From assembly GCA_044892505.1 (NCBI GenBank), contig CM097882.1, positions 317,254,001 through 317,318,000 on the forward strand: a stretch of DNA of 64,000 nt, in the 5' to 3' direction. Each line of letters begins with the position of its first letter. The first letter of the stretch is position 1. Below, in pieces: positions 13,496 to 37,614 of the stretch. A program made the position numbers and the translations under genes. A model generated the notes under the pieces. It did no database searches. It saw only the letters and a list, made by a program, of their open reading frames with translations, and was not told the origin of the DNA. The stretch comes from Schmidtea nova (Eukaryota).

Positions 13496-13546
13496 CTTAA
13501 AAGTTTTGTAAAATTTGAAATACTTTAAAAATCTAGTAAAAATTAC

Positions 13547-14524: not shown

Positions 14525-14860
14525 ATGTAATAATAATAATAATACTAATACTAATAATAATATCATAATTATCTTTTTTCACCTTTGATCTTTTATTATT
14601 ATTATTATCAATAATTCTCATAATGACTATAGATCAAATTTTTTTTTATAAACAATAACACAATATTTCGGCACAGCCTTTATCAAGTGTGTATTTCTTG
14701 ATAAAGGCTGTGCCGAAATATTGTGTTATTGTTTATAAAAAAAAATTTGATCTATAGTCATTATGAGAATTATTGATAATAATAATAATAAAAGATCAAA
14801 GGTGAAAAAAGATAATTATGATATTATTATTAGTATTAGTATTATTATTATTATTATTAT
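14525..14860. repeat. Palindromic PLE-derived element (head-to-head pLTR ends) in an (ATT)n tract
   Basis: Near-perfect inverted arms of ~160 bp centred near 14692 (..ggcacagcctttatcaag tgtgtattt cttgataaaggctgtgcc..). Confidence 0.8.
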
Positions 14861-17525: not shown

Positions 17526-18941
17526 ATATAATAAACCTATTTGGTGTGAAAAATTATGTCTCTATTACAATATACATTTTAAAGTAAGTTTATTTTTATT
17601 TATGATCAAATCACTAAGTTTGTTAAATTACTTCCTAAGAATAAAAAAATTCATTCAAAATTTTTTGAAAGTTTTTTTACATAATACCAGCTAAAATGAA
17701 CCTGAATAAATCACAACAGTTAAACAAACAATAATTATTCGTGTGTAATTTAGCCAATTACAAATTAATTATACATCCATCTAGTTCTAATCAATTACTA
17801 ATAAAAAACATTTAGTCATAAATGGTTAAATAACCGATGGCATATGAATTTGATTTTTTGTCTTGTTAAAATCACTTCAAAAAATATTATATCTAGAATG
17901 AAAATGTTTCATTATGTTGAAAATTTCCATGTCTGAAAATTTCCAACAAATTTCCATGTCTATGAAAATGAATGACAGTTATCTATAGAAATCATTCCTT
18001 GCATAATTTTATTAATTAATTAATACGCTTTGAATACATTGTCAATTATTTTGATAGAAATTTATAGAAAAAAACCAAAATGTCGAAAAATTTCAATGAA
18101 TTTTAATAATTATCATTATTTCTAATTTTCTCATTTGATCTTTTCGTTTCTATTTTAGAGGTTTTCATAAATTTGTTTAAGATTTTAGATTTCTTTTAAA
18201 AAATGTACTTTGTAAAATAAATGTGATCTATAGTCTTTATAAAAAAGTAAAAGTTTACTTAAATGACAAAATTAACTAAATTAAAAAATGTAACAAAAAA
18301 AGCCTTTACTGCAAAAACAATTTTATTAAGTGAGAAAATTTTCGATTCTAAAATAATCCTCATCAATCCCTAATTCGACATATAACTGGTATTTTCATTC
18401 ATTCTGCTGTTTCTTTCTCGTGAATTACGTTGTTTTTTATTGGATGTTAATCTAATTAATCTATTTTTTTTAATTTTTAATTGTTTTTTAAATGTTTGTT
18501 TTGTTAAAAATTTAAAAATATAAAATAAAAACTCTTAAATCTTTAAAATGTTTTTCTAAATTTTTTTCGAATAAATAAATTTATCCTTCTTTTAACATTT
18601 TAAATATTTAATTTAATTGTCTGTATTTTACATTTTAATTTTCCAACTCTTTATATTTGAATTTTTTAAATTTAATTATATCTTTGAAATGTCCATAAAT
18701 TCTCTGTTCTATATCTTTTCTCCCCTTTTTCTTCCCTTCTTCCTTTTTTACTTTTTTCTTTGAAGAATAACATGTTTTTTTAACAAGATAGTAAGTGGGC
18801 GATTTCGCTAAATTCCTCTTTAGAGTTAATTTTTGCGTGTTTGTCTATAATAAGAATAGCATCTTTAAGTCTGAGATTTTTTTATGCTGACAAAATTAAC
18901 TAATATGAAAAGAGATTTGTTATTTTATTAGGATTGCCCAA

Positions 18942-19560
18942 AGTAGATAGTTATGAGGAGCATGACTCATCGAAATTACGTCATAATTACGTAATATTTC
19001 GTGACCCCCCCTCCCCCGATTTTTTTTTGATGGCGTAATCGATGACGTATTTTAAAATTCAAATTTAAAATTTAAATTTCCAAAGGTCAAATAAGGTCAA
19101 ACCTTCAAACAAGGGTATCATTCGAAAGGTCTTGGAGAGGTCTATCCAATGGTCATACCCTCGAAGGTTTATTGGAGGGTCATTGACCTTCAAAGGGTCA
19201 AAAACCTTCAACTTTTTTCAAACCTTATAATATACATATCAAACAAAAGGTAATTGAGAGGTAAGTATGATGGTCATACTTTCAAAGGTGTATGGAGTGT
19301 CCTGAACCTTGAAAGGGTCAAAAACCTTCAACCTTTTTAATTCTTATAATATGTACATCAAACAAAAGGTAATTGAAGGGTGAGTATAATGGTCATACTA
19401 TCTACTAACTAACTAATTTTTTGTACAGAGATAACTTGTGTGTGTGTGTTTAAGAAAAATTACTGTACTCATTGAACGCGCGTGAAACGCGCGTTCTTCT
19501 TCCTTGTTGTATAAGACAAATCACAGTACGCATTGAACTTGCGTGAAACGCGCGTTCTTC
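18942..19560 (+). repeat. Left TIR of Polinton
   Basis: Reverse complement of 34642-35134 plus one extra ~120-bp internal unit. Contains GAACGCGCGT-GAA-ACGCGCGTTC hairpins. Confidence 0.9.
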
Positions 19561-19577
19561 TTCCCTTGTTGTTTAAG

Positions 19578-19660
<83 letters not shown>

Positions 19661-19662
19661 TA
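19578..19662. repeat. (TAA)n microsatellite
   Basis: Pure trinucleotide run that produces spurious poly-Ile ORFs. Confidence 0.95.
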
Positions 19663-20481
19663 TTATTATCAATAATTCTCATAATGACTATAGATCAAAA
19701 TTTTTTTTTTATAAACAATAACACAATATTTCGGCACAGCCTTTATCAAGTGTGTATTTCTATCGTTATATTTACTTAATCCTAAATAGTAGCCTTAATT
19801 ATTTTTTTAATATTTTATAATGATTTTATTGGATGAAAAAATTTATTTTTTTTTAATTTTTTTGTGCGAATTGAATGTTGATGGACGGTTTGTATTTTTT
19901 TATGAAAAAAGTCTCGGAAGCTAATCTTTGTAATGAATTTTTGAATCCCTCTTGTAGGATCTGGCATTTTGTTTCTTCTATAGATGGAGTTGTTTTATGT
20001 ACTTTTTCCCAGTGTTCGTAATAATTACTGGTTTTGATTTTAGTATGTAATCTAAAATATACTAAAATAATACTAAATAATACTAAAATCAAAACCAGTA
20101 ATTATTACGAACACTGGGAAAAAGTACATAAAACAACTCCATCTATAGAAGAAACAAAATGCCAGATCCTACAAGAGGGATTCAAAAATTCATTACAAAG
20201 ATTAGCTTCCGAGACTTTTTTCATAAAAAAATACAAACCGTCCATCAACATTCAATTCGCACAAAAAAATTAAAAAAAAATAAATTTTTTCATCCAATAA
20301 AATCATTATAAAATATTAAAAAAATAATTAAGGCTACTATTTAGGATTAAGTAAATATAACGATAGAAATACACACTTGATAAAGGCTGTGCCGAAATAT
20401 TGTGTTATTGTTTATAAAAAAAAAATTTTGATCTATAGTCATTATGAGAATTATTGATAATAATAATAAAAAAAGATCAAA
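19663..20481. mobile_element. Palindromic PLE insertion nested in the Polinton
   Basis: Essentially perfect ~380-bp inverted arms centred near 20063. Each arm encodes the same GIY-YIG C-terminus (..LASETFFIKKYKPSINIQ) followed by a pLTR with a hammerhead-like motif (20373-20405). Confidence 0.85.
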
Positions 20482-20767
20482 NNNNNNNNNNNNNNNNNNN
20501 NNNNNNNNNNNNNNNNNNNNNNNNNNNNNNNNNNNNNNNNNNNNNNNNNNNNNNNNNNNNNNNNNNNNNNNNNNNNNNNNNNNNNNNNNNNNNNNNNNNN
20601 NNNNNNNNNNNNNNNNNNNNNNNNNNNNNNNNNNNNNNNNNNNNNNNNNNNNNNNNNNNNNNNNNNNNNNNNNNNNNNNNNNNNNNNNNNNNNNNNNNNN
20701 NNNNNNNNNNNNNNNNNNNNNGACACAAAATAAAAAAGACATTTTCAAATAACAAAATTTATTAAAA

Positions 20768-21217
20768 TCAAAATCGATGAGATATTCTGGCATTGTTGAT
20801 TCTCCAAATTGGAGTCATAACATCATTCAAATCAAGTTTATACCCTTGAATTGTAATGTTAATATACCAGCTTTCATTATCAATTAATTGAATCTCTTCA
20901 AATGAATCGAAGAATTTGGTTTGCCGATTATTAATGACTATGTTTTCATTGCAACATAATTTCTTATTGATCTGATTCAAAAGTTTATTGAGAGATAATA
21001 CATCTTCTTTCGATATAGTTCCATAAAGATTCGAATATTGAGTCTTACTCAATTTAACAGGATTTGAAAGACTGAAATCTATTTCACTAACCAAAAAATA
21101 CATTTTATGGTCATGATATATTTGAACTGGCTTCAAAATAGCTTTCTTTGATTTAACTGGTTTGTCTGAATCAATTGTATTAGATCCATTATTGCTAAAT
21201 AATTTAGTTCCTAACAT
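20768..21217 (-). CDS. Polinton hypothetical protein (possible OB-fold/ssDNA-binding)
   Basis: Intact ORF from ATG (MLGTKLF..). C-terminal beta-rich YINITIQGYK...PIWRINNARI. Function is a guess. Confidence 0.6.
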   Translation of the reverse strand: MLGTKLFSNNGSNTIDSDKPVKSKKAILKPVQIYHDHKMYFLVSEIDFSLSNPVKLSKTQYSNLYGTISKEDVLSLNKLLNQINKKLCCNENIVINNRQTKFFDSFEEIQLIDNESWYINITIQGYKLDLNDVMTPIWRINNARISHRF

Positions 21218-21450
21218 TTTAAAATAATAATCTTTAATCACTTAAAGCTTATATTTATACTAAAATAACAATCATGTGTGCAACCAATCAAAATACTATG
21301 ATTGAAATACATTCAAACTATAATTCAATTAAACAAAAAAAAAACCTAAATAAAATAACAATAAAAACTAATAACTATTTAAATACTTTAACAATAAAAT
21401 ATAAAAAGAAGATTAAATAAAAATAAATACAATTAAAGAATAACAATTTA

Positions 21451-21811
21451 TTAAATAACATCTTGGGCTCTATGCCACCTTTCTAACTGATAAAGCAGCT
21501 CTTCTTTATCTTTTAAGAGCCTCCAGTTTGGGCAACATTTGCAATGAATGCAGCAAATGGGCTCCAACTTTATCGCAGGCTCTTTCATATTCCTTTTATG
21601 TTCCCCGATCACCTCTTTCAGGTTCATGCCGGAGAACATCCATACCTTGAAGGGAATGAACTCTGGAGCCCAAAACATCATTTCCTTCATTTCTTCAGGG
21701 TATAATCTTGCCATTGTTTGCAATGCTATTTGCATTAGTGATTCTAAAATAATTAAATTAAAAATTAATTAAAATAAAACAAATAGGCTTACCGTCCAAG
21801 GAGCTAGACAT
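21451..21811 (-). CDS. Polinton Cys-rich hypothetical protein, two exons (21793-21811, 21451-21743)
   Basis: ATG TCT AGC TCC TTG GAC G|gtaagc..49 bp..ttttag|AA TCA CTA ATG joins in frame. CCIHCKCC motif. TATA- and CCAAT-like boxes upstream. Confidence 0.7.
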
Positions 21812-21918
21812 GTTTTTTCATTTTTAACTGAATAAGTGTTTCGTATATATACAAAATTTTGAAACACACTACACCCAATCAGAAACATACACACTCATTA
21901 CGTATACATGACAAATAC

Positions 21919-22389
21919 TTAGGTAATACTTAGCAAAAAGTTTAGGAAATCTTCCTCCTCATTCATCGATTTTATTTCGTTAATAATTTGTTCAACCAAT
22001 TCATGATAATCCAAGGTTTTAATACCAAGTATTACTACTTTGCCACTTGCAAAAACGTTTACACATAATGGATTAAATTTAGAATATCTCAAAGCTGGAA
22101 ATATTTCTGGTTCATAAACACAATTAGTTTTCTTCAATAATAAATTTAAATTAACACGGGATCCTATATCTGCAGTTACTGTAATTGATTGAATTTGAAT
22201 ATCTTCAATTGGATATTGTAAATCTTCAATTTTTAAAGGTTTTTTGCACCCCATTATTCGACATTTACCTGATTTGAAAAATAAAATCGGATACTTTCCA
22301 CTTCTATCGACAATTTGTTGTGGTTTCTCCATTGGAAATTTCATGTGCGAAACTGAGCATTTACCTTTATAATTTATGTTGGTCAGCAT
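21919..22389 (-). CDS. TATA-box-binding protein (TBP)-like protein
   Basis: Two TBP repeats: LTNINYKG..ILFFKSGKCRIMGCK and IQIQSITVTADIG..VNL..L..YEPEIFPALRY....VNVFASGKVVILGIK, cf. canonical YEPELFPGLIYR..LIFVSGKVVLTGAK. Confidence 0.88.
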   Translation of the reverse strand: MLTNINYKGKCSVSHMKFPMEKPQQIVDRSGKYPILFFKSGKCRIMGCKKPLKIEDLQYPIEDIQIQSITVTADIGSRVNLNLLLKKTNCVYEPEIFPALRYSKFNPLCVNVFASGKVVILGIKTLDYHELVEQIINEIKSMNEEEDFLNFLLSIT

Positions 22390-22481
22390 TTATGATGTAA
22401 TAAAATTTAAATATTTTTTATTCGTGTAAAACAATTAATTAAAACAAATATAAACAATAATAATTTCTTTAATATAATAAA

Positions 22482-23105
22482 ATGAAATTGAGAAACGACG
22501 CAGTATATCAAATTGTTGGTCCAAGTGGAAGTGGGAAAACATTGTTTGTTTGTAAATTATTACAATCAAATATGTTTAAATCAAAATTTAATAAAATATA
22601 TTGGCACCGGGGAGCTGATGATGAACATGGTTTGACACAAGACCAATTTTGTAAGATAAAAATGACAACAATTAAAGGATTTGATAAAAACTGGTCATCT
22701 AGATTACGACAAGGTGATGTTATTATTATTGATGATTTGTATCAAGAAGCTAATAAAGAAAAGGACTTTAATAATTTATTCACGAAAATAGCTAGACATA
22801 AAGGAGTTACAGTTATTTTTATTACTCAGAATTTATTTCATCAAGGTGGAGCTCATCGAACTCGTAATTTAAATGTTCAATATCTAGTTGTTTTTAAAAA
22901 TCCCAGAGATTCAACAGTTATTGATTTTCTTGCAAGACAAGCTTACCCTAATAATCGTAGTTTTTTAATTGATGCATTTCAAGATGCAACTCAAATTCCA
23001 CATGGGTATATTTTTCTGGATTTCACACAACAATGTCCTAATGAATTACGAGTTAGTACCGATATTTTCAATAAAGAAGGTGCAATGATTTATAAACAAA
23101 GTTGA
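22482..23105 (+). CDS. A32/FtsK-like DNA packaging ATPase
   Basis: Walker A GPSGSGKT, Walker B IIIDD, ARH..VTVIFITQNLF, R.RNLN. Confidence 0.95.
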   Translation: MKLRNDAVYQIVGPSGSGKTLFVCKLLQSNMFKSKFNKIYWHRGADDEHGLTQDQFCKIKMTTIKGFDKNWSSRLRQGDVIIIDDLYQEANKEKDFNNLFTKIARHKGVTVIFITQNLFHQGGAHRTRNLNVQYLVVFKNPRDSTVIDFLARQAYPNNRSFLIDAFQDATQIPHGYIFLDFTQQCPNELRVSTDIFNKEGAMIYKQS

Positions 23106-23125
23106 AATAATAAATTACATCAATA

Positions 23126-23662
23126 ATGTTTTTAAAATCACGCACAAAGATATTAAAGTCGCCTAAAATTAAAAAAGTTTTTAAAAAGAAACGTCAAACT
23201 AAAGTACCACCAAAGACTAGTTACACGTCACCGAAGAAACTTATTATTGAAAATATTCCTGCAAAGAATCTTATTTCACATAATCTGAAACCAAAAGAAT
23301 CTTTAGAAAAAATTGAAAATGAAATAAAAACATCAAATCATCGTAGTTTCCCATTTTTCAATGCATTACTTAAGGCACCTAGTATTAAAAGAATTAGTAA
23401 TTTACAATCGTTTCCAAATTATGTTATTGATGATTTACTTGATGTTATAGTTAAAATCGTCAAAGGTAAAATTAATATAAGTAAATCAAATAAAAAAGTT
23501 CTAAACAAACACAAGAAACCATTGTTATCACTTGTAAATACTAAAAGTCGGAAACAAATGCGCAAAATCATATATAAACAACAAGGAGGATTTATTGCTG
23601 CATTATTACCATTAGCATTATCTTTGTTAGGAGGAGTTGGTTTATTAGGACAACAAACATAA
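23126..23662 (+). CDS. Basic core protein with adenovirus pX-like C-terminus
   Basis: Lys-rich; ends QQGG|FIAALLPLALSLLGG, similar to the adenoviral pX tail (GG-cleavage site plus hydrophobic helix). Confidence 0.7.
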   Translation: MFLKSRTKILKSPKIKKVFKKKRQTKVPPKTSYTSPKKLIIENIPAKNLISHNLKPKESLEKIENEIKTSNHRSFPFFNALLKAPSIKRISNLQSFPNYVIDDLLDVIVKIVKGKINISKSNKKVLNKHKKPLLSLVNTKSRKQMRKIIYKQQGGFIAALLPLALSLLGGVGLLGQQT

Positions 23663-23665
23663 ACA

Positions 23666-23899
23666 ATGGGACAAACTCCTTTGAGTCATTTAGCTAATCT
23701 TACATTGAATTTTAAATCTACTTGTTGTAATGGAGAAGATATGGACAAATCCAAAAGACCCGGCAGGCTTTGGTGGGGTAGAAAAGCTAAACAAAAAAGT
23801 AATCAAATCGAAAAAAGAGACGCAAAATTGGTTATCCGGACAACTGGCATACAGTCTAAACAAACCAATGTTGAAACGATTTCCAACAAGAGCATATAA
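23666..23899 (+). CDS. Small putative lipidated protein overlapping the integrase 5' end
   Basis: MG start (N-myristoylation-type) plus KSTCC; ATG directly after the previous stop; +1 frame overlap with integrase. Confidence 0.45.
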   Translation: MGQTPLSHLANLTLNFKSTCCNGEDMDKSKRPGRLWWGRKAKQKSNQIEKRDAKLVIRTTGIQSKQTNVETISNKSI

Positions 23900-24796
23900 A
23901 ACATATGGTATTAATGATTTGTGGCAAATGGATTTGATGGAAATGATTCCTTATTCGAAAATCAATAAGGGTTTCAAATATATATTAACTTGTATTGATA
24001 TTTTTAGTCGATATGCACGCGCGGTTCCAACCAAAACAAAATCTGCTAATGAAATGGCAGTGGCAATCAAAACATTGTTTGCTGATGGGCAGCCGAAAAA
24101 CTTACAAACTGATTTAGGTAAGAAAATTAATTAATTTAATTTAATTTAATTTTTAATTTAGGTAAAGAATTTTACAATAGCAAAGTTAAAGAAATTTTAA
24201 AGGGAATAAATCATTACTCGGTATTTTCACAATTCAAAGCAGCGCATGTTGAAAGATTTAATCGTACATTAAGAGATCGTTTGAAAAAGTATTTTGTACA
24301 TCAAGGGAATAAAACATGGATTAATGTATTGCCAAAAATAATACATAGTTATAATCATTCGTCACATAATGGTATAAATGGATTGAGACCTGTTGATGTT
24401 TCAATAAAAAATACAGCAAAGATTTTATTATCTCGCAAAGAAAAATCGAAAATGAAAAAACCTAAATATAAAGTTGGTGATCATGTTCGAATTAGCAAGA
24501 TTAGCGCTTCACCATTCATCAAAGATTTTGATAGTAATTGGAGTGATGAGGTATTTCAGATCTCAAAAATTAATACTAGCCAAGACCCTGTCATGTATGT
24601 TATTTCTGACTCTGAAAATAATGTAGTTAGTGGTAAATTTTACGAGTAAGAATTGCAAGTTATTCCCCCACTAACAGTATTTAGAATTGAAAAAATTTTA
24701 AAAACTAAAATAGTGGGTAAAGATAAACAATATTATGTCAAATGGCATGGATATCAAAACCCATCATGGATATCAGCCAAAGATCTAGTAAAATGA
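23730..24796 (+). pseudogene. RVE integrase with C-terminal chromodomain; 44-bp intron (24118-24161); premature TAA at 24647-24649
   Basis: WQMDL..CIDIFSRY..QTDL-G|KEF..VERFNRTL is restored by splicing. After the stop the frame continues ELQ..FRIEKIL..YYVKWHGY..PSWI (chromodomain). Confidence 0.9.
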
Positions 24797-25788
24797 ACTT
24801 TTATATGATTTTACCAAGTAATAGTTGTCCATTAATTCATCCAGATAATCAAGCCAGTAAATTCATGATCAATTTACAAAATCCAATTTATTTACGTGGT
24901 AATTGGGAAGTTGCATTGCAAGATTTCACATTTGTATATAACAAATTTCCTTATTACAGCCAATGCAAAATTTACTACACGACAGTGACAACTGAAACTG
25001 TAAATGACTACTTTAAAGTTCAAACTAATTATGAAGATACTCAATATTTGAATGATAAAGTTGAATTACATCTAGATAAAATATATTTACATATAAATTG
25101 TGATATAACACCATTTTATTTTAAGTTTGAAAATATAGAAGATGCGAATAAATTTGGGTTTAATGAATTAAAAATCATTAGCAACAATTCAACTTATAAA
25201 ATGCTTATTCCTTCTGATTATTCATCAGAGAAAATGCATATATCAATAAGTTATGATTTAGAAACAGATTTACTTTATGAATTCCAAGACGAAATATACA
25301 TGACAAAAGTTGAAGATTTATATAATTATTTGACATTTTTCTGTTCTCATATATTTAAAGGTGTTGAAATTATTGACAATGTATTCAAATTTAAACTGAA
25401 AGATGAAGTTAAAGAAGTTATATTTGATCAAAAACTAATCAATACACTTGGATTAAAATATGAAAAATATCAAGATAGAGAAGTTAAAGGAATTCGCAAA
25501 GCCAAATTATTTAATCATCATCAACAAATGTTTATTTACAGTAACATTATTGAACCAATTATTGTCGGTGATTCTCTAGTTCCTCTACTGAAATCTGTAT
25601 GGATCGACAAATATGAACAGGATGAAGTTGTACAAATAGTAATGGATAATCCAATGTATTTACCTATTTCTACCTCATGTATAAACAATATAGAAATAAA
25701 TATCCGTGACGATAGTGGTAAATTAATAAATTTTCCAAAAGATTCAAAAACACATTTGACATTACATTTTCGTAAATTAAATGATTAA
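24793..25788 (+). CDS. Minor capsid (penton) protein
   Basis: MNFYMILPSNS..F...L..PI.L.G.WEVAL; C-terminal FIYSNIIEP..VGD...PLL..Y.P.....I..IEINIRD..G..I.F....LHF. The ATG overlaps the integrase TGA (ATGA). Confidence 0.9.
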   Translation: MNFYMILPSNSCPLIHPDNQASKFMINLQNPIYLRGNWEVALQDFTFVYNKFPYYSQCKIYYTTVTTETVNDYFKVQTNYEDTQYLNDKVELHLDKIYLHINCDITPFYFKFENIEDANKFGFNELKIISNNSTYKMLIPSDYSSEKMHISISYDLETDLLYEFQDEIYMTKVEDLYNYLTFFCSHIFKGVEIIDNVFKFKLKDEVKEVIFDQKLINTLGLKYEKYQDREVKGIRKAKLFNHHQQMFIYSNIIEPIIVGDSLVPLLKSVWIDKYEQDEVVQIVMDNPMYLPISTSCINNIEINIRDDSGKLINFPKDSKTHLTLHFRKLND

Positions 25789-26173
25789 TCCAGATATAAT
25801 TTCATTGTATAGTAATAGCCAAACTGGTGGTGAATTACCTTATTTTGCTGGTAAACAGTATGGATCAGGTTGGTTAAAAACTATAAGGCGATTTGCACTC
25901 CCAATTCTAAAGAGAATCGGTAGTTTTGGTTTAAAAACTGCCAAAGATGTCATCATGAATGATCAGAAAATATTACCATCATTGAAAACAAATGCTTTGT
26001 CTGCAATTGGTAAAGTCTTGCCTACAGTGAGTAGTATGATTCCTAATGTTGCAAGTATGTTTAATAATGATGAACCTGAACCTGAACCTGAACAAGTGGG
26101 GCCTAGACGTAAAAAACATCGAAGGTATATAAACAATCGAATGAAAGGACATGGAACTATATTTGCAAAATGA
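25781..26173 (+). CDS. Polinton virion protein with amphipathic (pVI/cupiennin-like) helix
   Basis: QTGG.LPYF.G.QYGSG followed by amphipathic WLKTIRRFALPILKRIG; basic C-terminus PRRKKHRR. Confidence 0.75.
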   Translation: MINPDIISLYSNSQTGGELPYFAGKQYGSGWLKTIRRFALPILKRIGSFGLKTAKDVIMNDQKILPSLKTNALSAIGKVLPTVSSMIPNVASMFNNDEPEPEPEQVGPRRKKHRRYINNRMKGHGTIFAK

Positions 26174-27396
26174 TTTGTGGTAAATCTGAATTATGTCTTT
26201 TTGACCGACCATCACCTCAAGCAGTTATTGAATATGGTGCATTTGAAGAAGTATTTCCCATGAATTCTATTACAGACGGTAGAAATGATGTGGAATTTTA
26301 TGTTAACGGATCTCAATCTGAATATTTGGATTTGAATGATACTTTACTAACTGTTCAAGTAAAAGTAGTAAATGCCGATAAAAAAGATTTGTCTGCAACT
26401 GTTGATGTTATACCAAACAATTTCATGTTTCATACTCTATTCAAGGACGCAATTCTTGGTTTTAATAATATCAAAATTGAAGGTGGAAACAATACATATG
26501 CACACAAGGCAATAATCGAAACTATTTTAAATTATAATAGTGATACTAAAGAAACTTGTCTTACTCCAATGGGATATGGAGAATCTGATGAGAGAAAAGC
26601 GTGGATCAAAGGCTCAAAGCTATTCACAATGTGTTCATCTCTACAACTGGATTTCATGGATCAACCGAAATATTTATTACCAGGTGTCAATATTCACATC
26701 AGATTGAAGCGATCAGATTCTGCATTATCACTATATTCTAAAAGTGGAGCACCAAAATGTCAATTAGTTGATGCAAAATTAATGATTCGTCGTGTTCGTG
26801 TTGAACCATCTGTATTAGCTGGACACCAAGTTGGACTTAACTCAAAACACGCCATTTATCCAATGAAAACCAAAGAAATAGTACAATTCGCCATTGGTAA
26901 AGGTGCATCATCTTTCTACAAAGAACAAATATTCGGCGATCGAAGAATGCCTAATTTCATTCTGGTCACATTTCAAAGTGAAACTCAATACAATGGATCA
27001 TATAATACATCTAGTTCGAAATTCAAACATTTCAATGTAACTTCCTTATCTCTATCGAAAAACACTGATTATAGAGAAACATACACTCAAGATTTTGAAA
27101 ATGATAATTATTGTACTACATATATGCAGTCGATGGTCAGAAATATGGGATATTTAGATATAAATTTGAATTTGAATTGTGGTATAACACTTGCCGATTT
27201 TAAAAACAAATACCCTTTCTTTACATTTGTTTTGGCTCCGGATTTCGATTTAAATCAAAGTCAATTACCACAAAATGGAAATTTGAGATTGGATATAAAG
27301 TTTTCTAAAGCTATTGAAGAACCAGTACAGGTAATAATATATGGAGTATTTGAAAATGAAATTCAAATTACTGCTAATCGAACAGTATTGGTTTGA
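26170..27396 (+). CDS. Major capsid protein (double jelly-roll)
   Basis: KSEL.LF..P..Q..IE.G....V.P, EF...G....YLDL, Q.KYLLPGV...I.L.R, P..ILV, G.LRL...F: typical Polinton MCP motifs. Confidence 0.93.
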   Translation: MICGKSELCLFDRPSPQAVIEYGAFEEVFPMNSITDGRNDVEFYVNGSQSEYLDLNDTLLTVQVKVVNADKKDLSATVDVIPNNFMFHTLFKDAILGFNNIKIEGGNNTYAHKAIIETILNYNSDTKETCLTPMGYGESDERKAWIKGSKLFTMCSSLQLDFMDQPKYLLPGVNIHIRLKRSDSALSLYSKSGAPKCQLVDAKLMIRRVRVEPSVLAGHQVGLNSKHAIYPMKTKEIVQFAIGKGASSFYKEQIFGDRRMPNFILVTFQSETQYNGSYNTSSSKFKHFNVTSLSLSKNTDYRETYTQDFENDNYCTTYMQSMVRNMGYLDINLNLNCGITLADFKNKYPFFTFVLAPDFDLNQSQLPQNGNLRLDIKFSKAIEEPVQVIIYGVFENEIQITANRTVLV

Positions 27397-27472
27397 GCAG
27401 AGCTCAAACATTATTGGTTTGAGCAGAGCTCAGACATTACTGGTTTGAGCAGAGCTCAGACATTACTGGTTT
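27389..27472 (+). repeat. 26-bp tandem repeat x3.2 with internal hairpin
   Basis: TGGTTTGAGCAGAGCTCA(A/G)ACATTA(T/C); the first unit contains the MCP stop codon. Confidence 0.9.
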
Positions 27473-27515
27473 AAACTATCATTATAAATGTGCAATTCAA
27501 AGTTAACAATTTGTC

Positions 27516-27915
27516 ATGGAGTAAGTTTTTATTATTTATTAAATAAATCTATTTAAATAGTTCTATTCAGATTAATCGAATTGGAAAACAATTATTGGGA
27601 AATGAATTTATTGGAGTATATCCACTAGACAAAATACCTTATTTAGATGACAATCAAGCCATAGTCGTCAATACACAATCATCTACTCTTGGTGGAGAAC
27701 ATTGGATAGCTGTAAATGTAAAACCGATCAAGATATATGCATTCGATCCATTCGGATGTTACTATCCAGGTTTATTAGTTAGTAAACTGCAAACATTAGG
27801 AAAACCTATTGAATATAATCGAATTTGATATCAAGATCCATTAACAATTACTTGTGGTCAACATTGCCTTGCATGGCTTAATTCAATGTTAAAAAGTATA
27901 AACAATGTAGTTTAA
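27516..27915 (+). pseudogene. Adenain-type cysteine protease; 40-bp intron (27521-27560); premature TGA at 27826-27828
   Basis: ATG GA|gtaag..aatag|T gives MDSIQIN..FIGVYP.D..IVVNT....GEHW..YAFDPFG; after the stop YQDPLTITCGQHC (catalytic Cys). Confidence 0.88.
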
Positions 27916-27934
27916 TAAATGTTTTTAGAAAAAA

Positions 27935-28369
27935 ATGACTTGTTATTTTATTGATATTTACGGTTATAATGATAATTGTGGTGGGAAAATTATTAAAGAA
28001 TTATGAATTAAGAATGTTAATAATATTTTTCGACCAAAATATTGGATATATAATGATGTTCCTTTTTGGGCTGAAATTGGTGAACCTGACAGATTAGAAT
28101 GGTATGAAGGGGAAGACCACTTTTGTCCAACATGTATTTTGAAAGAAATTGAAGATGTTGATGCGATTTGCTATGTGACTGATCAAGATAAACTTACTGT
28201 TTTAAAAAGATATTTTCCGTCCCTAAGATTAATTAAGTATAATATTAAGGAAGTTGAAACTTTTCCTGACAATATTTCATGCCCATATCGAGATCATACA
28301 AATTGTGCATATAAAGGGTGTTTGGTGGGGGCTTTAGATTATTTAAAAATTAATAATATGCTTAATTAA
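27935..28369 (+). pseudogene. Polinton accessory protein, degenerate DEDD-nuclease-like; premature TGA at 28004-28006
   Basis: MTCYFIDIYG...IIKEL*...LEWYEG...CPYRDHTNCA, all in one frame from ATG 27935. Confidence 0.55.
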
Positions 28370-28677
28370 TTTGAAATAAAAAATTTGCAATTGAAATGCA
28401 TAATCTCTGCGGTCATCGTGCATGAGTAATCATGTGTGTATTAATGGAAATTATAATGAGTTAGCTTGTATGTATAACATATGTGTATGATAATACACAC
28501 ACAGCTGGTAAATCCATGTTGTATGTATGCGAGCGACTCTTTTCTTCTCATAAACGATTTTCATTGGTTCAATTAATATTATGCAATATATCTTATATAA
28601 AGATATGTTTTCAATATTTTAGTCACTTTTTACCATAACCCAAAATTTCTTATTCATCATATAATCAATTATTATAT

Positions 28678-28958
28678 ATGTACAACAATATTAATAATGT
28701 TAAAAATACCAATATCAATGGATTGAATGGTAAGGATTTATTTATTTTTATTTTATTATTTTTAAACGTAATTTATTATAGGAATGTCAAGAATTAATAT
28801 GCGAAATGTTACAAATGTATCCGGAAACAATAACAATAATGTTTCTTTTAGAAACGGTAAAATTTTATTTGTATATTTATTATTTTATTTAATGTTTTAT
28901 AGAACTTTTTAATGCCCCAAATGAATCCACGACGAATTTTAATTTTAATAACAATTAA
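28678..28958 (+). CDS. Putative three-exon Asn-rich micro-gene (28678-28729, 28782-28856, 28903-28958)
   Basis: Two GT-AG introns (52 and 46 bp) join in frame. Upstream ATTGG, TATATAA (~28594) and Inr-like TAGT (~28620). Confidence 0.5.
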
Positions 28959-30043
28959 AAGTGTATCCGCGATGAATTTTAATAAGGATTCAAATACTGG
29001 ACATTTTTTAAATAATGCATCGATAAATTCCGTGATGAATGGTAGAACAAAATGTAAGATTTTTAAATTTTTATAATGTTTTATAATGTTTTATAATGTT
29101 TTTATAATATTTTACTATTAATATTTTCCCTTAATTAAATAGTATTCTCAATTAACTATGAATATATTCAATAATAATATTAGTTTTTAATAATAATAAT
29201 AATATTAGTTTTTAATAATAATAATAATATTAGTTTTTAATAATAATATTAGTTTTTAATATTAGTTTTTTAATAATAATAATAATATTAGTTTTTAATA
29301 ATAATAATAATCATAATAATATTAATAATGATAATAATTTGATAAAGATAAACTATTTTAATACAACATATTGTATATTAATTTGATAATGATAGATTAT
29401 TTTAATATAACTCATGGTATAATAATAATAATTATAATCTTAAGATAAAAATTATTTTAATAACAACTTTAACATACCATATGATAAATAACCTTTAAAT
29501 TTTAACATATTTCGTAATAGGTTTATCTTCTTAAACTATTATGTAATATGTCAAAATTTGATTAGCAACTGTCAGACTTTATACAATATCTATTAATTTT
29601 AACCTATTACATAATAGTTTTGTCTTCATAAACTATTAAGTAATATGTTAAACTTAGATTATTATTAATATATTTATTATAATATTATTGATTTAATTTT
29701 TATGATGAAAAAACAATTATGAAATAAATATTTAAAAAAATATTAAGACATTATTATGTAGATTTTTTATTTAAAAATATTAATGATATATATTTTATAT
29801 TTAAATTTGTTATGTAGGTTATAAATATCCGACTTTTTGCAATAGTATTTGCCATAACGACTGTGACGTCATTATGGAAAAATACTATCGTTATAAATAT
29901 AATTGTATAACTTACCTGTTATGCCCCGTATGCCAAAATCTTGAAACATCGACATATACTGACTTCTATGATAAACACCATATTCATTTAACTCAATATA
30001 TGCCTTCTAAAAAACCATTTTTAATACAGCTTACTCAAAAGCT

Positions 30044-33000
30044 TTGACTACAACAACAACTAACATTGAAACCAATCATGAAACCAATAGGCAAATTGAC
30101 AACAATAATAACAATACTACAATGAATGAGATTTTATTACAAAACCAACAATTGATAGAGTCAATCAATAAGTTAATAAATGTAATAGGTAGTAAAAGAC
30201 AATCAGATTTTTCAACTGATATTCCCACAAAAAAGATTAAAATAGACGAAATCATAACAATAAGTGACGACGACGACGAGTTTCTTGTAGATAATGAGGT
30301 TCTTGTAGATAATGAGGTTCTTGTAGATAATGAGGTTCTTGAAGATAACGACGTTCTTGTAGATAACGACGTTCTTGTAGATAACGAGGTTCTTGTAGAT
30401 AACGAGGTTCTTGTAGATAACGAGGTTCTTGTAGATAACGAGGTTGTAAATATTAGTGATGATGATGATGAGATTGTAAATATTAGTGATGACGAGATTC
30501 TTAGCGAGGTAGTACCCCAAATTCTTAATTGTTTTTCGGTTCAAGTAGGCTGTGGCGTAGTTGATATAGTTTCAGACTTGAATAACTCCCATGTTATAGT
30601 GAAGCTTGATGTGTCGTCTTTGAATTGTCAAACTCTTTCTGTTCCTGACGTTCTCCTTGATAAATTATTTGAAACTGTAAGTAAAATGAAATCGGTGAAA
30701 ATACAATTTTGTATTAAAGTAGAGTTTGAGAAAGATGATGAACTTCAATCTTTCGTCATCTCAAACTCTGCTCGTGTTTGGAGCGAATCTTTCATTGACG
30801 AGGGTATCTCTCTTTTAAACGAGAAAATAAGTAAAATAAATGAAAAGGGGAGTAATTTGACCATCAGAAAAATTGAATATATTAGTTTTATAGTCACAAA
30901 ATACTCTGAGATAAGTAGACTGAGTGGTCGCAAATATATTCAAACCCCCAGAACGTTAATCAGGAAAAATTGTCTAGTTAATGTAAATAACGACGATCAA
31001 TTTTGTTTTCTTTATTCGATCTTGGCCCTTATAAAATATAGCAGCACTCCCGATGAATTACGTCATCTGTCTTCATCCTATAATCTTTCCCAACTTGTAT
31101 ATGACCCGGCTGATATGCCAATGAAATTATCAAATATTTCCAAATTTGAAAGACAAAACCCAGGATATGCCATTAATGTCTTAAGTTACGACGAGAATGC
31201 CTTGAGTAATATAAGTAATAATGACACTATAATGAAACATCCCTTCATAGATATTATTTATCGTAGTAAGGTGGTAGGAGGTACTTGTTTAAATTTATTA
31301 TTATTGGAGAATCGAAAAACCTATCATTATGTCGCTATATCTAACCTAAATATATTTCTAAATTGTCGAAACTCATCAATAAGTTCAGTTCGTATTCAAT
31401 GTAAGTGGTGTCCTAGGTGTCTTAATGGATTTAGACGTGACGATAGTTTTAATAGACATATAGGTCTTTGTGATAAAAACCAATTAGGAACCACAATGTA
31501 TACTCTACCCGATAACTCTTTATTGGAATTTAGTGATTATAGAAAAACCATCACTCCTCCTTTTGTCATTTATGCCGATTTTGAGGCAATACTCCCAAAA
31601 GATGAAAGATATTATCAAAAACACTTACCCATTTCTGCTGGGCTTTTGTGTATCAACAATTATACGGGAGAAAAATTTTATAATTCTTTTATAGGGCTTT
31701 CTTGTGTAGATCAGTTTTTACGTCAAATTGAGCATATATCAAAAAAGATTGTAAGTCCCTACTACCATAAAAATTTTGACAAGAAAATTATTTTTACCGA
31801 CGATGACGCTATTAATTACAGTAACAGCACAAACTGTCATTTGTGTAATAAATTATTAGATACCCCTGTTAGAGACCATAATCACTTCACTGGTAAATTC
31901 ATTGGTGCTGCTTGTAGAAAATGTAATTTATCCAGACAAATACGACACACACTACCTGTAGTCTTTCATAATTTGAAAGGGTATGATCTTCATCATATCA
32001 TCAAATTCGGTTTGTCAAATTATAAGTCCTGGAATTTAAGTTGCATTCCGCTAACAAGTGAGAAGTTTTTAACCCTAACCGCCTATATAGATTCTTTGAC
32101 AGTTAAATTCATCGATAGTTGCCAATTTGTAAATTCTTCATTGAAAAAGGCTGTGTCAAACTTGAATTCTTTACCCTTGACGGAATCTGAGTTTAGAGGC
32201 ACTATCATAAATAGTAAAGGAATATTCCCTTATGATATAGCGACATCCCTTGATGTATTAAGATCAACATTAGAATTACCCCCAAAATGGAGTGATGTGT
32301 CCCAAGATGAGTATGATAAGGCCAAATTGATATGGCAAGAGACATCGTGTAATTCCCTTTTGGATTATATGATGGTCTACCTCAAGTTAGATGTTTTCCT
32401 GTTGGCTGACTTTTTTCAGCAATTCCGGGCTAAGAGTATTGCCCATAATAAACTTGAACCCCTTAATTTTCTTGGTATCCCCAGTCTTTCTTGGAGTTCT
32501 GCTTTGTTAAGTCTTGATAAACCTATTGTACTTCTCACCGACATGGAGATGTACAATTTCTTTGAGGGTGGGATTAGAGGTGGGATAACTTTTGTGAATA
32601 AGCATTTTGTTCGTAGTGATGAAAATACAGAGTTGTTGTACATTGACATAAACAACCTGTATGGATGGGCTTTGAGTCAAAAACTTCCCGATGGTGATTT
32701 TGAGTGGGTGACTGACGATACGACTTTAGAGAGATTATTAATTGAATGTACAACGGTAGATTTAAGTCTGCTTGATTATGGTTACACAGTCGAAGTGGAT
32801 TTACAAATACCACCATCGATTCAGGATAAGCTTGATGATTTTCCGGTAGCTCCTGAAAAGATGTGTCCACCTTTTTCTAAAGTGGAGAAGTTGCTACTTA
32901 CACATTACCCGAAAACAAACTACGTTCTCCATTGGCGACTTCTCCAAATCTTTCTTCAGTTAGGTGTTGTTGTCACAAAGGTACATAGGGCTATTAGGTA

Positions 33001-33988
33001 CACACAAAGCACAGTATTCAAAAAATATATAGACACAAACACCCAATTACGAGCATCGTCCACAACTCCGCTCGATAGAGATTATTACAAGTTACTCAAC
33101 AACAGTTTGTATGGAAAAACTGTTGAGAACTTGAAAAAACGTATGAACTTACGCCTGTGCAATTCAGCGCAAAAACTTATCACATATACCTCAAAATCGG
33201 TATTTAGGAAATCTACCAGGATAGACAGTGATTTGATTTCGGTTTTGTTTAGGAAAGAATCTATATGTTTAGATAGACCCAGCTACATTGGTCAATCAGT
33301 ACTGGATCTGTCTAAACTGAGAATGTATCAGTTACAGTATAACGACTTGCAAAAATATCGCGAGGAGTTTAACTGTCAAATTAATATAGTCGCAGGTGAT
33401 ACAGACTCTTTCTTCTTGGAGATTAAACATTGTAGTCTTGACATTCTCTTACCTGCCATGATCCGTGACTCCTTGCTTGACACATCTAACTATGACCCAC
33501 AACATGCCCTATATAGTAGAGCCCTGGATTCCGTTATAGGAAAATTCAAAGATGAGAATAAAGGGCAGAAATATAAGGAGTGGGTGTTTCTTCGTCCCAA
33601 ATGTTACAGTTTGTTAGGTGACAAAGAAACTATCAAGGCTAAGTCTGTCACATTAAAAGATAGTGGCTTAAACCATAACTCTTATCGCGATTGTTTCTTT
33701 AACAATAAGGTTTACTCTGTTCCACAATTCCGAATTACTTCCAAAAACCATCAATTGTACAGCATTAGAAACAATAAGAGGGCGCTGACAAATAGGGATG
33801 ATAAGCGGTATTGGTGTTCCAAAAACAATAGTTTGGCATATGGGCATCATCGGGTGGGGGATACTTTTATATATAACGATGATGATGATGATGAAAATAA
33901 TCGATTCCTGGACAATAACCCATTTGATGAAAACGATCAGGGTACCAGCATTCAGAATTACAATTACAGAATTCTGCATCCGCAATAG
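30044..33988 (+). CDS. polB: Protein-primed B-family DNA polymerase (pPolB) with vOTU-like and endonuclease VII domains
   Basis: ExoI YADFE, FHNLKGYD, YIDINNLYG, KLLNNSLYGK, GDTDS, LRPKCY. EndoVII CHLC..VRDHNH.TG...GAAC..CNL. vOTU-like NDDQFCFLYS...HY. First in-frame ATG at 30122. Confidence 0.96.
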   Translation: MTTTTTNIETNHETNRQIDNNNNNTTMNEILLQNQQLIESINKLINVIGSKRQSDFSTDIPTKKIKIDEIITISDDDDEFLVDNEVLVDNEVLVDNEVLEDNDVLVDNDVLVDNEVLVDNEVLVDNEVLVDNEVVNISDDDDEIVNISDDEILSEVVPQILNCFSVQVGCGVVDIVSDLNNSHVIVKLDVSSLNCQTLSVPDVLLDKLFETVSKMKSVKIQFCIKVEFEKDDELQSFVISNSARVWSESFIDEGISLLNEKISKINEKGSNLTIRKIEYISFIVTKYSEISRLSGRKYIQTPRTLIRKNCLVNVNNDDQFCFLYSILALIKYSSTPDELRHLSSSYNLSQLVYDPADMPMKLSNISKFERQNPGYAINVLSYDENALSNISNNDTIMKHPFIDIIYRSKVVGGTCLNLLLLENRKTYHYVAISNLNIFLNCRNSSISSVRIQCKWCPRCLNGFRRDDSFNRHIGLCDKNQLGTTMYTLPDNSLLEFSDYRKTITPPFVIYADFEAILPKDERYYQKHLPISAGLLCINNYTGEKFYNSFIGLSCVDQFLRQIEHISKKIVSPYYHKNFDKKIIFTDDDAINYSNSTNCHLCNKLLDTPVRDHNHFTGKFIGAACRKCNLSRQIRHTLPVVFHNLKGYDLHHIIKFGLSNYKSWNLSCIPLTSEKFLTLTAYIDSLTVKFIDSCQFVNSSLKKAVSNLNSLPLTESEFRGTIINSKGIFPYDIATSLDVLRSTLELPPKWSDVSQDEYDKAKLIWQETSCNSLLDYMMVYLKLDVFLLADFFQQFRAKSIAHNKLEPLNFLGIPSLSWSSALLSLDKPIVLLTDMEMYNFFEGGIRGGITFVNKHFVRSDENTELLYIDINNLYGWALSQKLPDGDFEWVTDDTTLERLLIECTTVDLSLLDYGYTVEVDLQIPPSIQDKLDDFPVAPEKMCPPFSKVEKLLLTHYPKTNYVLHWRLLQIFLQLGVVVTKVHRAIRYTQSTVFKKYIDTNTQLRASSTTPLDRDYYKLLNNSLYGKTVENLKKRMNLRLCNSAQKLITYTSKSVFRKSTRIDSDLISVLFRKESICLDRPSYIGQSVLDLSKLRMYQLQYNDLQKYREEFNCQINIVAGDTDSFFLEIKHCSLDILLPAMIRDSLLDTSNYDPQHALYSRALDSVIGKFKDENKGQKYKEWVFLRPKCYSLLGDKETIKAKSVTLKDSGLNHNSYRDCFFNNKVYSVPQFRITSKNHQLYSIRNNKRALTNRDDKRYWCSKNNSLAYGHHRVGDTFIYNDDDDDENNRFLDNNPFDENDQGTSIQNYNYRILHPQ
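30277..30445 (+). repeat. 18-bp coding tandem repeat (VLVDNE)n in the pPolB N-terminus
   Basis: About 9 units of GTTCTTGTAGATAA(C/T)GA(G/C). Confidence 0.9.
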
Positions 33989-34641
33989 GTAAATTTTTAT
34001 TATTATTTTTATTATTATTATTATTATTATTAATTGTAGTTTTAACAATCTTGTCAGAACATCAAATAATTATAACTTGGCAGCCAGTTTCTGAAATTTA
34101 CGAACTCGATATTCCATTTGGGTTTAAACTCTGTGATATTAGAAATATAATTTTTATTTTCAAATTGATTTTTTAATTTTGTTGTAAACTTTTTGGCAGA
34201 ANNNNNNNNNNNNNNNNNNNNNNNNNNNNNNNNNNNNNNNNNNNNNNNNNNNNNNNNNNNNNNNNNNNNNNNNNNNNNNNNNNNNNNNNNNNNNNNNNNN
34301 NNNNNNNNNNNNNNNNNNNNNNNNNNNNNNNNNNNNNNNNNNNNNNNNNNNNNNNNNNNNNNNNNNNNNNNNNNNNNNNNNNNNNNNNNNNNNNNNNNNN
34401 NNNNNNNNNNNNNNNNNNNNNNNNNNNNNNNNNNNNNNNNNNNNNNNNNNNNNNNNNNNNNNNNNNNNNNNNNNNNNNNNNNNNNNNNNNNNNNNNNNNN
34501 NNNNNNNNNNNNNNNNNNNNNNNNNNNNNNNNNNNNNNNNNNNNNNNNNNNNNNNNNNNNNNNNNNNNNNNNNNNNNNNNNNNNNNNNNNNNNNNNNNNN
34601 NNNNNNNNNNNNNNNNNNNNNNNNNNNNNNNNNNNNNNNNN

Positions 34642-35134
34642 AGAACGCGCGTTTCACGCGCGTTCAATGCGTACTGTGATTTGTCTTATACAACAAGGAA
34701 GAAGAACGCGCGTTTCACGCGCGTTCAATGAGTACAGTAATTTTTCTTAAACACACACACACACACACAAGTTATCTCTGTACAAAAAATTAGTTAGTTA
34801 GTAGATAGTATGACCATTATACTCACCCTTCAATTACCTTTTGTTTGATGTACATATTATAAGAATTAAAAAAGGTTGAAGGTTTTTGACCCTTTCAAGG
34901 TTCAGGACACTCCATAAACCTTCGAGTGTATGACCTTTGGATAGACCTCTCCAAGACCTTTCGAATGATACCATTGTTTGAAGGTTTGACCTTATTTGAC
35001 CTTTGGAAATTTGAATTTTAAATTTGAATTTTAAATTACGTCATCGATTACGCCATTAAAAAAATCGGGGGTCACGAAATATTACGTAATTATGACGTAA
35101 TTTCGATAAGTCATGCTCCTCATAACTATCTACT
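34642..35134 (-). repeat. Right TIR of Polinton (inner part lies in an assembly gap)
   Basis: Reverse complement of the left TIR. Confidence 0.9.
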
Positions 35135-37614
35135 GCTCAAATTGAAAATAATATGTATACTATAATAATTAAAATCATGACTTTGTATTGAACATGAAAA
35201 AATAATTTCCTTTTAATATTTTTATTGATAGATTCATAAACAATATCGTAAAAAGTTCATGAAACATTTCCCCCCTATTGTAGAATAAAAATATTTTTAA
35301 AATACTTTAATTTTGAATATGTTTTATTTTCTACCTTTGATCTCTTCTTTCTGTTTCAAAAATGTCCAGTAAAGTTTTATAAAAAGGCAATCAAAAGAAA
35401 CGATATCATTAAAAGGAAAGTTAAATGAAAATACAGAAAAGGTTAGAATAATTCTCAAAAACATGAAACATTAAAAAAATTAACAATAAAATTATTTCTG
35501 TAAATTGTTTTTGTTTCTGGTGATTATATTTTATAAATTATATCTAACAATATAAACGAAATTGTAAAGAGTGAAGGTTCTATAACATAATGGTTGTCAA
35601 CAGTCAATTTTGTATAAAAGTCATGAAGAATTTTCAAAATTAACTTCTGAATCTTTACAAATAATAAACAAATTTCAAAAAAATTTAATTCATATAATTT
35701 TTGTTTTGTAGAAATCCTTCCATTTTAAAATTTATATAAATATTCACTGAATAATAAAAAGGTTAACCTTAAGTTTTATAGATTTAACAATTGTATTTTA
35801 TCTCGCGTAATTATATTGTATGTATATTGTTTCTTTAAGCTTTGAATTCGAAGATTCTTTTATTAATGTTGTAATTATTTTAATTTCAGATATATTATTA
35901 AATTATAAATACCAGAAATTAAATTCAANNNNNNNNNNNNNNNNNNNNNNNNNNNNNNNNNNNNNNNNNNNNNNNNNNNNNNNNNNNNNNNNNNNNNNNN
36001 NNNNNNNNNNNNNNNNNNNNNNNNNNNNNNNNNNNNNNNNNNNNNNNNNNNNNNNNNNNNNNNNNNNNNNNNNNNNNNNNNNNNNNNNNNNNNNNNNNNN
36101 NNNNNNNNNNNNNNNNNNNNNNNNNNNNNNNNNNNNNNNNNNNNNNNNNNNNNNNNNNNNNNNNNNNNNNNNNNNNNNNNNNNNNNNNNNNNNNNNNNNN
36201 NNNNNNNNNNNNNNNNNNNNNNNNNNNNNNNNNNNNNNNNNNNNNNNNNNNNNNNNNNNNNNNNNNNNNNNNNNNNNNNNNNNNNNNNNNNNNNNNNNNN
36301 NNNNNNNNNNNNNNNNNNNNNNNNNNNNNNNNNNNNNNNNNNNNNNNNNNNNNNNNNNNNNNGCTGCGGGAAAATTTTGTAAATTTTAAAAAATATTTTG
36401 ATCTGTAGTCTTAATAAAAAATTTAAAATCTTATACATTGATTAAAATAAATAAAATTAGTATATAAAAATAAATTATAATTATAATCAAATCAACTTTG
36501 CACACAAGAAACTTTTTCCTTCGAAATTGAAACTTAATAATATAATTGATCATCCTATTATAGTAACTTAACGGTTAAAAATTAGCACTAATAAGAATCC
36601 AAATGTGGATCTATTATTTTAATTTAAAATACATATTTGGTGACCCAAATGAGCACACGTTATATTTCATTTATTATAAAAGATTTATCTATGCTAAAAC
36701 TAAAAACATATTTTAATATTTAAAAATTAAATTTAAACAATTTTAAGATAATTAAAAATAATAAAAACCTAGGATGTTTTGTTCAATATATTCAATCTAA
36801 TTGAAAGTTATTATAATAATATTTTATTATGAATAAACTTTGAATTTGAATTGTTTATGGATGTTTTAAAAACTAAGAGTTCTTAAAAGAATAGTAATAC
36901 CAACAGTGTCAATTCTTAATCCTAGATATTTTAACTTTTGTAATATTTCTATAGTTAAACTGTTTACTAGGGTTAATTTCAAAGGCAAACATTTGAAAAA
37001 TAGACCTCTTCAAATACAACTCGAATGATCAAAGACATTTATTATTTCACAGATATCCAATTTGTGGTCTAAAATTATATTATGATATTTACAATCATTA
37101 ATATTAAAAATATTAATAATAATAAAACTTTTTGAAACCTTTTGTAGAACTATAGAGACAAGATCATTTTGTACATATTTATTTAAGTAATAAAATTTGT
37201 TCGGATTTTATTTCTATTTGTTAATACTCTTCAAACATAGTCAAACCTTTTAAAAGCTTTTCAAACATATTTATTTTTTAGACAAATATTTTATCTTATT
37301 TTCTCATAACTTTAAATATTTTTCAGATATGATTGAATAACTGGAATTATCGGTTTGCTGTCGGAAACTAGAGGGTTATTGTCATCCTTTTAAATCCTAA
37401 TAATTGGTATACATAATATTCTTACATCTCATCAACCTTCGTATTTTTCATAAATATCTTATTGCTTCTTATATTTAATGAAGAATGAGTAAAATTATTT
37501 TTTGCTAAATCATAATTATCTTTTGGTTTCATCTTGATTTCTTTATTTTATTCAATAATTTTCATTTTAATTTTTGTAAGACTATAAATCATTTTTTTAA
37601 AGTTAAGTACACGA

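Follow-up and report, generated by a model that had tools for sequence, protein, structure and literature searches.

Probable spliceosomal introns in the integrase and protease genes of a Polinton from the planarian Schmidtea nova

Introduction

The Polintons or Mavericks (adintoviruses) of animals have terminal inverted repeats (TIRs) that open with AGT, a 6-bp target-site duplication (TSD), an rve integrase, a C5 protease and an A32-like ATPase, within about 16 kb. Their core genes are generally described as intronless, as a first-pass annotation of the locus studied here had also stated: the relevant passages on intact vertebrate Mavericks speak of 'eight conserved and intronless ORFs' (open reading frames) and note that 'no introns were observed' (PMC8097293), while those on nematode Mavericks call the core genes intronless and confine introns to captured cargo (10.1101/2022.07.12.499685). 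Here we analyse an element at positions 18942..35134 (about 16.2 kb with two N gaps included, termini AGT...ACT) of a 64,000-nucleotide stretch of Schmidtea nova DNA (assembly GCA_044892505.1, contig CM097882.1, positions 317,254,001 to 317,318,000 of the forward strand), which we call the window and to which all coordinates refer. Its TIRs, 6-bp TSD (with one mismatch), rve integrase, C5 protease and A32-like ATPase identify it as a Polinton, and it also has a candidate polymerase B ORF, named by its motifs, and two ORFs in capsid position. Unlike the animal Polintons described so far, it carries a gene resembling TATA-binding protein (TBP), and short GT-AG segments, very probably introns, interrupt the genes for integrase and protease. 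Intronlessness, a descriptive rather than a defining trait of the core genes, does not hold for integrase and protease here; the ATPase, the polymerase and both capsid-position ORFs are uninterrupted.

Introns of several kinds have been described in other mobile DNA, and we cite these papers for the passages that bear on the point. Full-length Polinton-like elements of dinoflagellates contain spliceosomal-type introns, as the present element appears to, but those are repeated mobile introners acquired mostly after integration (PMC11957031), whereas the introns considered here are mutually unrelated and seem to be inherited at fixed codons in divergent elements. Group I introns have been found in cryptophyte Polinton-like elements (PMC12220804). 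The integrase-family transposase genes of Ginger1 DNA transposons likewise have canonical GT-AG introns at conserved positions, although Ginger1 is a single-gene, cut-and-paste transposon that lacks a polymerase or capsid module (PMC2836005). Term look-ups in five further texts (PMC10748475, PMC8502044, PMC9004415, PMC11296320 and 10.64898/2026.07.28.741278) returned no spliceosomal introns in core genes from the portions covered. None of the literature matches listed, a scope outside which lie Kapitonov and Jurka 2006 and Repbase, either of which may annotate exons, as well as supplements, describes spliceosomal introns inherited in the core genes of animal Polintons. Relative to the published intronless descriptions, the novelty is the presence of introns in Polinton core genes; introns in other DNA transposons were already known.

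Introns in core enzymes bear on whether animal Polinton genes are expressed in the nucleus in the manner of ordinary RNA polymerase II (Pol II) genes, and on the way the life cycle of these elements is switched. Inherited introns in two such enzymes would make one Polinton lineage dependent on the host spliceosome, and their splice junctions would provide a marker separating mature Polinton mRNA from both genomic DNA and PIWI-interacting RNA (piRNA)-precursor read-through in planarian RNA-seq. ORF-based surveys, in turn, would mis-score intact members of an intron-bearing lineage as broken. Mavericks are strongly expanded in the planarian host group, according to passages of a preprint (bioRxiv 10.64898/2025.12.11.693146).

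Results and discussion

The first-pass annotation had reported five AT-rich GT-AG segments within the element, and all five were confirmed: each starts with GT and ends with AG, spans 40-52 nucleotides (nt), never a multiple of three, and has an AT content of 88-93%. Two lie in core genes, namely the integrase segment at 24118..24161 (+ strand; 44 nt, AT 0.93, phase 1, with a TTAAT-repeat interior), which is the best supported, and the protease segment at 27521..27560 (+; 40 nt, AT 0.90, phase 2, GTAAGT donor). The remaining three are putative introns of accessory genes, one in a Cys-rich gene at 21744..21792 (-; 49 nt, AT 0.88, phase 1), recognised by its sequence signals, and two in an Asn-rich gene at 28730..28781 (+; 52 nt, AT 0.88, phase 1) and 28857..28902 (+; 46 nt, AT 0.91, phase 1). 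The GC fraction is 0.07-0.12 inside the five segments versus 0.20-0.38 in their 50-nt flanks, and U2-type signals (a GT donor, A-rich positions +3/+4 and a YAG acceptor after a U-rich tract) are found in all of them. When both strands of the 13,479-nt element interior were scanned with a strict short-intron pattern, six donors were obtained, corresponding to the five segments and to 33989-34039, all on the coding strand of the respective gene. Dinucleotide shuffles yielded a mean of 0.4-1.4 donors and reached six or more in 2 of 200 replicates with 200-nt blocks and in none of 200 with either 500-nt blocks or the whole region; the remaining 50 kb of the window contain 8 donors under the same pattern.

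In the integrase gene, the segment separates exon 1 (23730..24117, +; 129 codons plus one base, stop-free, Pfam rve above cut-off), which carries the first two catalytic aspartates, from exon 2 (24162..24796, +), which contains the catalytic glutamate region and a chromodomain-like end. Searches with exon 1 recovered at least 156 homologs, comprising the best 120 of 195 long relatives and 36 short ones. The motif QTDxG is followed directly by xEF in all 120 listed full-length relatives, and it is reached by 25 of the short ones, of which 21 run on and 4 depart, making 141 of 145 listed relatives that continue uninterrupted past QTDxG. Consistent with an insertion at this point, the tblastn alignments of six full-length relatives lie in frame 3 before 24118-24161 and in frame 2 after it. 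The two best-scoring of all relatives listed, P0121 (81% identity) and P0122 (83%), both short, end directly after QTDLG with KIII and N, respectively, as expected when gene prediction without splicing reads through a G|GTAA donor. Read unspliced, the integrase in the window likewise continues after QTDLG with KKIN and then a stop.

For exon 1, a tree from a quick maximum-likelihood search (71 rows: the window and 70 of 137 usable relatives, namely the 69 best-scoring and P0140, with 19 of the 156 left out as too short or without the motif) groups the window with P0121 and P0122 in a clade with a Shimodaira-Hasegawa-like approximate likelihood ratio test (SH-aLRT) support of 96, the neighbours of which are uninterrupted. 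Substitutions within this clade affect 2-3 of 50 conserved columns versus 19-22 of 79 variable ones (Fisher p 0.0004-0.008, for pairs that are not independent). On this comparison, which is not a dN/dS test, integrase exon 1 looks selected, as if functional after the insertion arose. Exon 2 of the window deviates at 6 of 77 conserved columns. A 10-nt direct repeat (6+4 nt) lies across the intron junction, and the empty site G|GTAAAG is present in an open frame in L001 and L002, two intronless relatives with DNA, which together with a third locus without the intron (L003) were obtained from 356 candidates in bacterial genome contigs. The junction repeat and the empty sites make duplication of a proto-splice site, accompanied by AT-rich filler, the simplest origin, and the locus would thus offer an intron gain caught with both its duplication scar and its empty-site relatives. 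The first-pass annotation had stated that absence of the inserts from sibling copies would speak against introns; distant relatives do lack the integrase insert, whereas the closest clade shares it. Judged by homology, the integrase interruption is very probably an intron that is confined to this clade and younger than that of the protease.

Four other observations concern the same site. The loci L001-L003 are Polinton-type integrase contigs within bacterial metagenome-assembled genomes, one of them labelled Planktothrix, and are probably mis-binned. In L003 (around 250-270), the sequence becomes unrelated within the QTD motif, bases from the intron site, starting with TGT, as in a chimera or a separate insertion. 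In P0124 (78%), exon 1 is fused in frame, from the intron-bearing codon, to the final 14 integrase residues, which could reflect a deletion or an alternative splice. Two further proteins, either of which may be a contig-end fragment, were rejected as intron-bearing: P0140 (51% identical, ending in QTDLGK), which the tree places at a great distance, and P0127 (ending in QTDL), which is sister to an uninterrupted protein.

In the protease gene, the coding part of exon 1 consists of the start codon and two bases (27516..27520, +), preceded at a distance of 33 nt by a TATA-like box (27483..27488, +), and exon 2 (27561..27915, +) encodes an adenovirus-type cysteine protease (Pfam Peptidase_C5, E 8.6e-6, above cut-off). 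The unspliced frame stops at 27522, that is, at the third codon. Among the 15 relatives compared, P0157 (73%) and P0162 (59%) show W-S-K upstream of the conserved start and x-S-S 11-12 residues further on, with differing residues in between, a pattern that matches the unspliced read-through of ATGGA|GTAAG...AG|T in the window. P0163 shows the 3' (acceptor) half of this read-through alone, P0158 and P0161 begin with MISS and are ambiguous, and six relatives begin downstream and are uninformative. No junction repeat is found at the protease intron. The retention of splice sites at approximately 60% protein identity, while the interior has diverged, is the strongest sign that this intron is real and old, as it very probably is.

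Integrase and protease are the only genes of the element for which the exons flanking the interruption could be shown to be collinear with uninterrupted homologs, and in both the position is common to relatives with a diverged interior (two for the integrase and two to three for the protease, from predicted proteins). The window copy carries an in-frame premature stop in integrase exon 2 (24647-24649) and another in protease exon 2 (27826-27828), both absent from the first-pass annotation. With these stops the copy is dead and would make neither enzyme at full length even if spliced. Because other elements share the introns, their origin predates the decay of this copy. In both core genes the intron very probably belongs to the lineage and is no peculiarity of the one copy.

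We consider it likely that the interruptions are genuine U2-type introns, removed constitutively and acquired by a lineage of animal Polintons that Pol II transcribes in the host nucleus. The segment boundaries and composition, the position shared with relatives, the junction repeat and the empty site in intronless relatives are observed; splicing itself, the duplication origin and constitutive use are what we infer from them. The protease intron, common to elements only about 60% identical, would be old. That of the integrase would have arisen at the coding sequence TTTAG|GTAA through duplication of this 10-nt stretch plus AT-rich filler, an event that could supply a working donor and acceptor simultaneously and thus allow the insertion to be tolerated and propagated by active elements. 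Host Pol II would transcribe the lineage from TATA promoters, and the host spliceosome would excise the introns by short-intron definition. TATA-like boxes are found 33-44 nt before four of the eight gene starts examined; these boxes and the TBP-like gene are in keeping with transcription by Pol II in the nucleus, and passages of a study on planarian Polintons report that these are transcribed and de-silenced during differentiation (PMC8532177). Retention of the integrase intron would introduce a stop at 24132, five codons in and ahead of the catalytic glutamate, and retention of the protease intron would terminate translation at the third codon. Earlier, the introns had been put down to long-term nuclear adaptation. 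Since both core interruptions behave as inherited introns present under selection, long nuclear transcription and host splicing do appear to be implied, but neutral gain at proto-splice sites explains the data equally well.

Several observations weigh against constitutively spliced introns. The intron positions of the relatives, in integrase and protease alike, derive from breaks in predicted proteins, and the intron-bearing integrase clade comprises three members only. Four protease relatives (P0160, inside the clade, and three in the outgroup) have a continuous methionine start, the intron label is not significantly clustered on a 16-row protease tree (43 of 500 shuffles were as low), and the protease intron inferred for P0157 is just 37 nt long. 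The core introns, at 44 and 40 nt, are at or just below the lower edge of the 45-85 nt size peak given for short planarian introns in the relevant part of PMC13594981. Branch-point-like TTAAT/CTRAY (YTRAY-like) sequences, which hold little information in AT-rich DNA, occur in four of six introns and are missing from that of the protease. Finally, the strict pattern was devised post hoc from these very introns, and the shuffle test is partly circular.

Regulated splicing is the alternative that survives best, although we regard it as unlikely. The first-pass annotation had put forward splicing control of integration and maturation as possible, which no result obtained here supports. Under this model, retention of the introns would determine, according to cell type or stage, how much integrase and protease is made, and a retained integrase transcript would give a dead N-terminal fragment of 134 residues. 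Mobile DNA and related nuclear DNA viruses are known in which enzyme output depends on host splicing, among them the Drosophila P element, with its germline-specific intron and regulated splicing, and the adenoviruses; in both of these regulated splicing has been proven. Among six core genes, only the two switch-like enzymes are interrupted here, and retention would truncate both. The reported stem-cell-specific alternative splicing in planarians (PMC4978528) and tissue-specific de-silencing of Polintons (PMC8532177) would be compatible with such gating, and the join of exon 1 to the C-terminal end in P0124 could be an alternative product. The donors, however, are near-consensus (GTAAGA, GTAAGT), as in constitutive introns, and the intron interiors are unconserved among relatives, with no conserved alternative splice site. 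Furthermore, 141 of the 145 listed relatives that reach the motif work without the integrase intron, and the window has no AG acceptor where the P0124 product would require one. A more elaborate version, in which the lineage placed host-spliced introns specifically in the genes for the integrase and the maturation protease and, by controlled retention and with a TBP of its own, would change over from latency to integration or to the maturation of particles depending on whether a planarian cell is a stem cell or differentiated, also strikes us as improbable.

Still harder to sustain is the proposal that the segments are inactivating insertions, scars left by slippage or repair in dead elements that spread in trans, and were never spliced, their GT-AG ends following automatically from duplication of an AGGT site. 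The window copy, with two premature stops, is indeed dead already, the integrase insert consists of TTAAT-repeat filler with a target-like duplication, and large inserts in degraded Mavericks have been mis-called as introns according to passages of PMC8097293. Against this, the identical break is found in three elements 17-19% apart that show a selection-like substitution pattern, and the protease intron, which lacks a repeat at its junction, keeps its splice sites at 59% protein identity while its interior has changed. Six canonical cases on the sense strand within a single element likewise argue against scars.

A very remote prospect is that the segments are introners (transposons that generate introns) acquired by the element once it had integrated, for which passages on dinoflagellate Polinton-like viruses provide a published precedent (PMC11957031). 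Only one of 15 intron pairs within the element is alike (p<0.05 versus shuffles), the six introns being otherwise mutually dissimilar beyond composition; the junction repeat is seen in one intron only, and sharing among divergent families places the gain before, rather than after, the insertion in the window. Trans-splicing was rejected: the five acceptors are all in phase 1 or 2, and a flatworm spliced leader ending in AUG would match the reading frame at none of them.

The introns of the accessory genes, three in all, are plausible; homologs bear out only the two in core genes. Removal of the five segments had been claimed to restore reading frames, and this holds for the integrase, through the tblastn frame switch, and for the protease, through its relatives. 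For the Cys-rich gene it is not confirmed. This gene comprises a putative exon 1 (21793..21811, -), preceded at about 40 nt by a TATA-like box, and exon 2 (21451..21743, -), which belongs to an unknown family and has its own internal methionine. HMMER searches over 1.84 billion representatives returned three matches, one credible (P0172) and two repeat-protein artefacts, and Atlas scores were no higher than 0.80-0.81. P0172 starts at the methionine inside exon 2, so that the Cys-rich ORF needs no intron and the intron is left unconfirmed. The Asn-rich gene (span 28678..29053, +; exons 28678-28729, 28782-28856 and 28903 onward, the third degenerate) has no homolog, and its exons match no Pfam family; an Asn-rich, stop-free frame carries through both putative introns, as expected by chance in about 1 in 9 cases.

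Two further candidate introns were absent from the first-pass list. One, at 29054..29142 (+; 89 nt, GTAAGA..TAG), is lengthened by a short tandem repeat. The other, at 33989..34039 (+), is canonical, 51 nt long, and has its first base directly after the polymerase stop codon, where it could be an intron in the 3' untranslated region or part of a small overlapping ORF. The five segments had also been likened in size to a host intron at 13496-13546. That segment is indeed GT..AG and 51 nt long, but the host gene itself is unverified: the length is a multiple of three and stop-free in the coding frame, the strict pattern is not matched, and the flanks match no Pfam family.

Gene content and surroundings of the element

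The left TIR (18942..19558), which opens with AGT, and the right TIR (34642..35134), whose inner part is lost in an N gap, were delimited by comparing both ends with blastn and are about 90% identical overall and 95-98% in ungapped blocks. The TSD reads GCCCAA on the left (18936..18941, +) and GCTCAA on the right (35135-35140), matching at five of six positions. The uninterrupted packaging-type (A32-like) ATPase ORF is located at 22482..23105 (+; Pfam Pox_A32, E 6.6e-7, above cut-off). Two uninterrupted ORFs at 24793..25788 (+) and 26170..27396 (+), named by position, are the probable minor and major capsid proteins. Neither has a library match; a 45%-identical relative of the probable major capsid protein adjoins the integrase on L002, and the single-sequence fold of the capsid candidate was unusable (predicted local distance difference test, pLDDT, 29.7). 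Three tandem repeats of 26-27 nt extend over 27393-27470 (+), from the point where the probable major capsid ORF terminates to just 5' of the protease promoter.

An uninterrupted ORF of 1325 codons (30011..33988, +), with an endonuclease VII-like stretch, is the polymerase candidate, a putative family B DNA polymerase by its motifs DINNLY, NSLYGK and GDTDS; Pfam, PHROGs, PDB and phage searches, including phage tblastn, gave no polymerase match. An acidic VLVDNE run in its N-terminal region derives from 18-nt tandem repeats at 30258-30499 (+). The compact TBP-like gene (21919..22389, -; Pfam TBP, E 2e-18) has archaeal TBPs as its top structural matches in PDB (E 9e-18), and no Polinton-encoded TBP appears among the literature matches listed, the relatives not having been searched for TBP. 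Two accessory ORFs of unknown family, one at 27920-28369 (+) that looks frameshifted close to its start and one at 20768-21241 (-), have no usable match in Pfam, PHROGs or Atlas, and the ORF 20771-21217 gave none in Atlas.

Just inside the left TIR, by a (TAA)n run, a palindromic element with perfect 388-nt arms occupies 19659-20467, and shorter relatives of it, likewise by TAA runs, are found at 14528-14856 and 39685-39909. A Burro-like giant Gypsy element (48918-63998, -) fills the rightmost quarter of the window with an open polyprotein frame of more than 5,026 codons, which includes Gag zinc knuckles, a viral fusion glycoprotein, protease, reverse transcriptase, RNase H, integrase and ankyrin repeats, and which fits the published description of Burro elements from dugesiid planarians, as given in passages of PMC6431247, pointing to a planarian host. 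A separate MATH/TRAF ORF lies beside it at 46962-48371 (-), and decayed fragments of a Gypsy-type reverse transcriptase and integrase are found at 6848-9135 (-).

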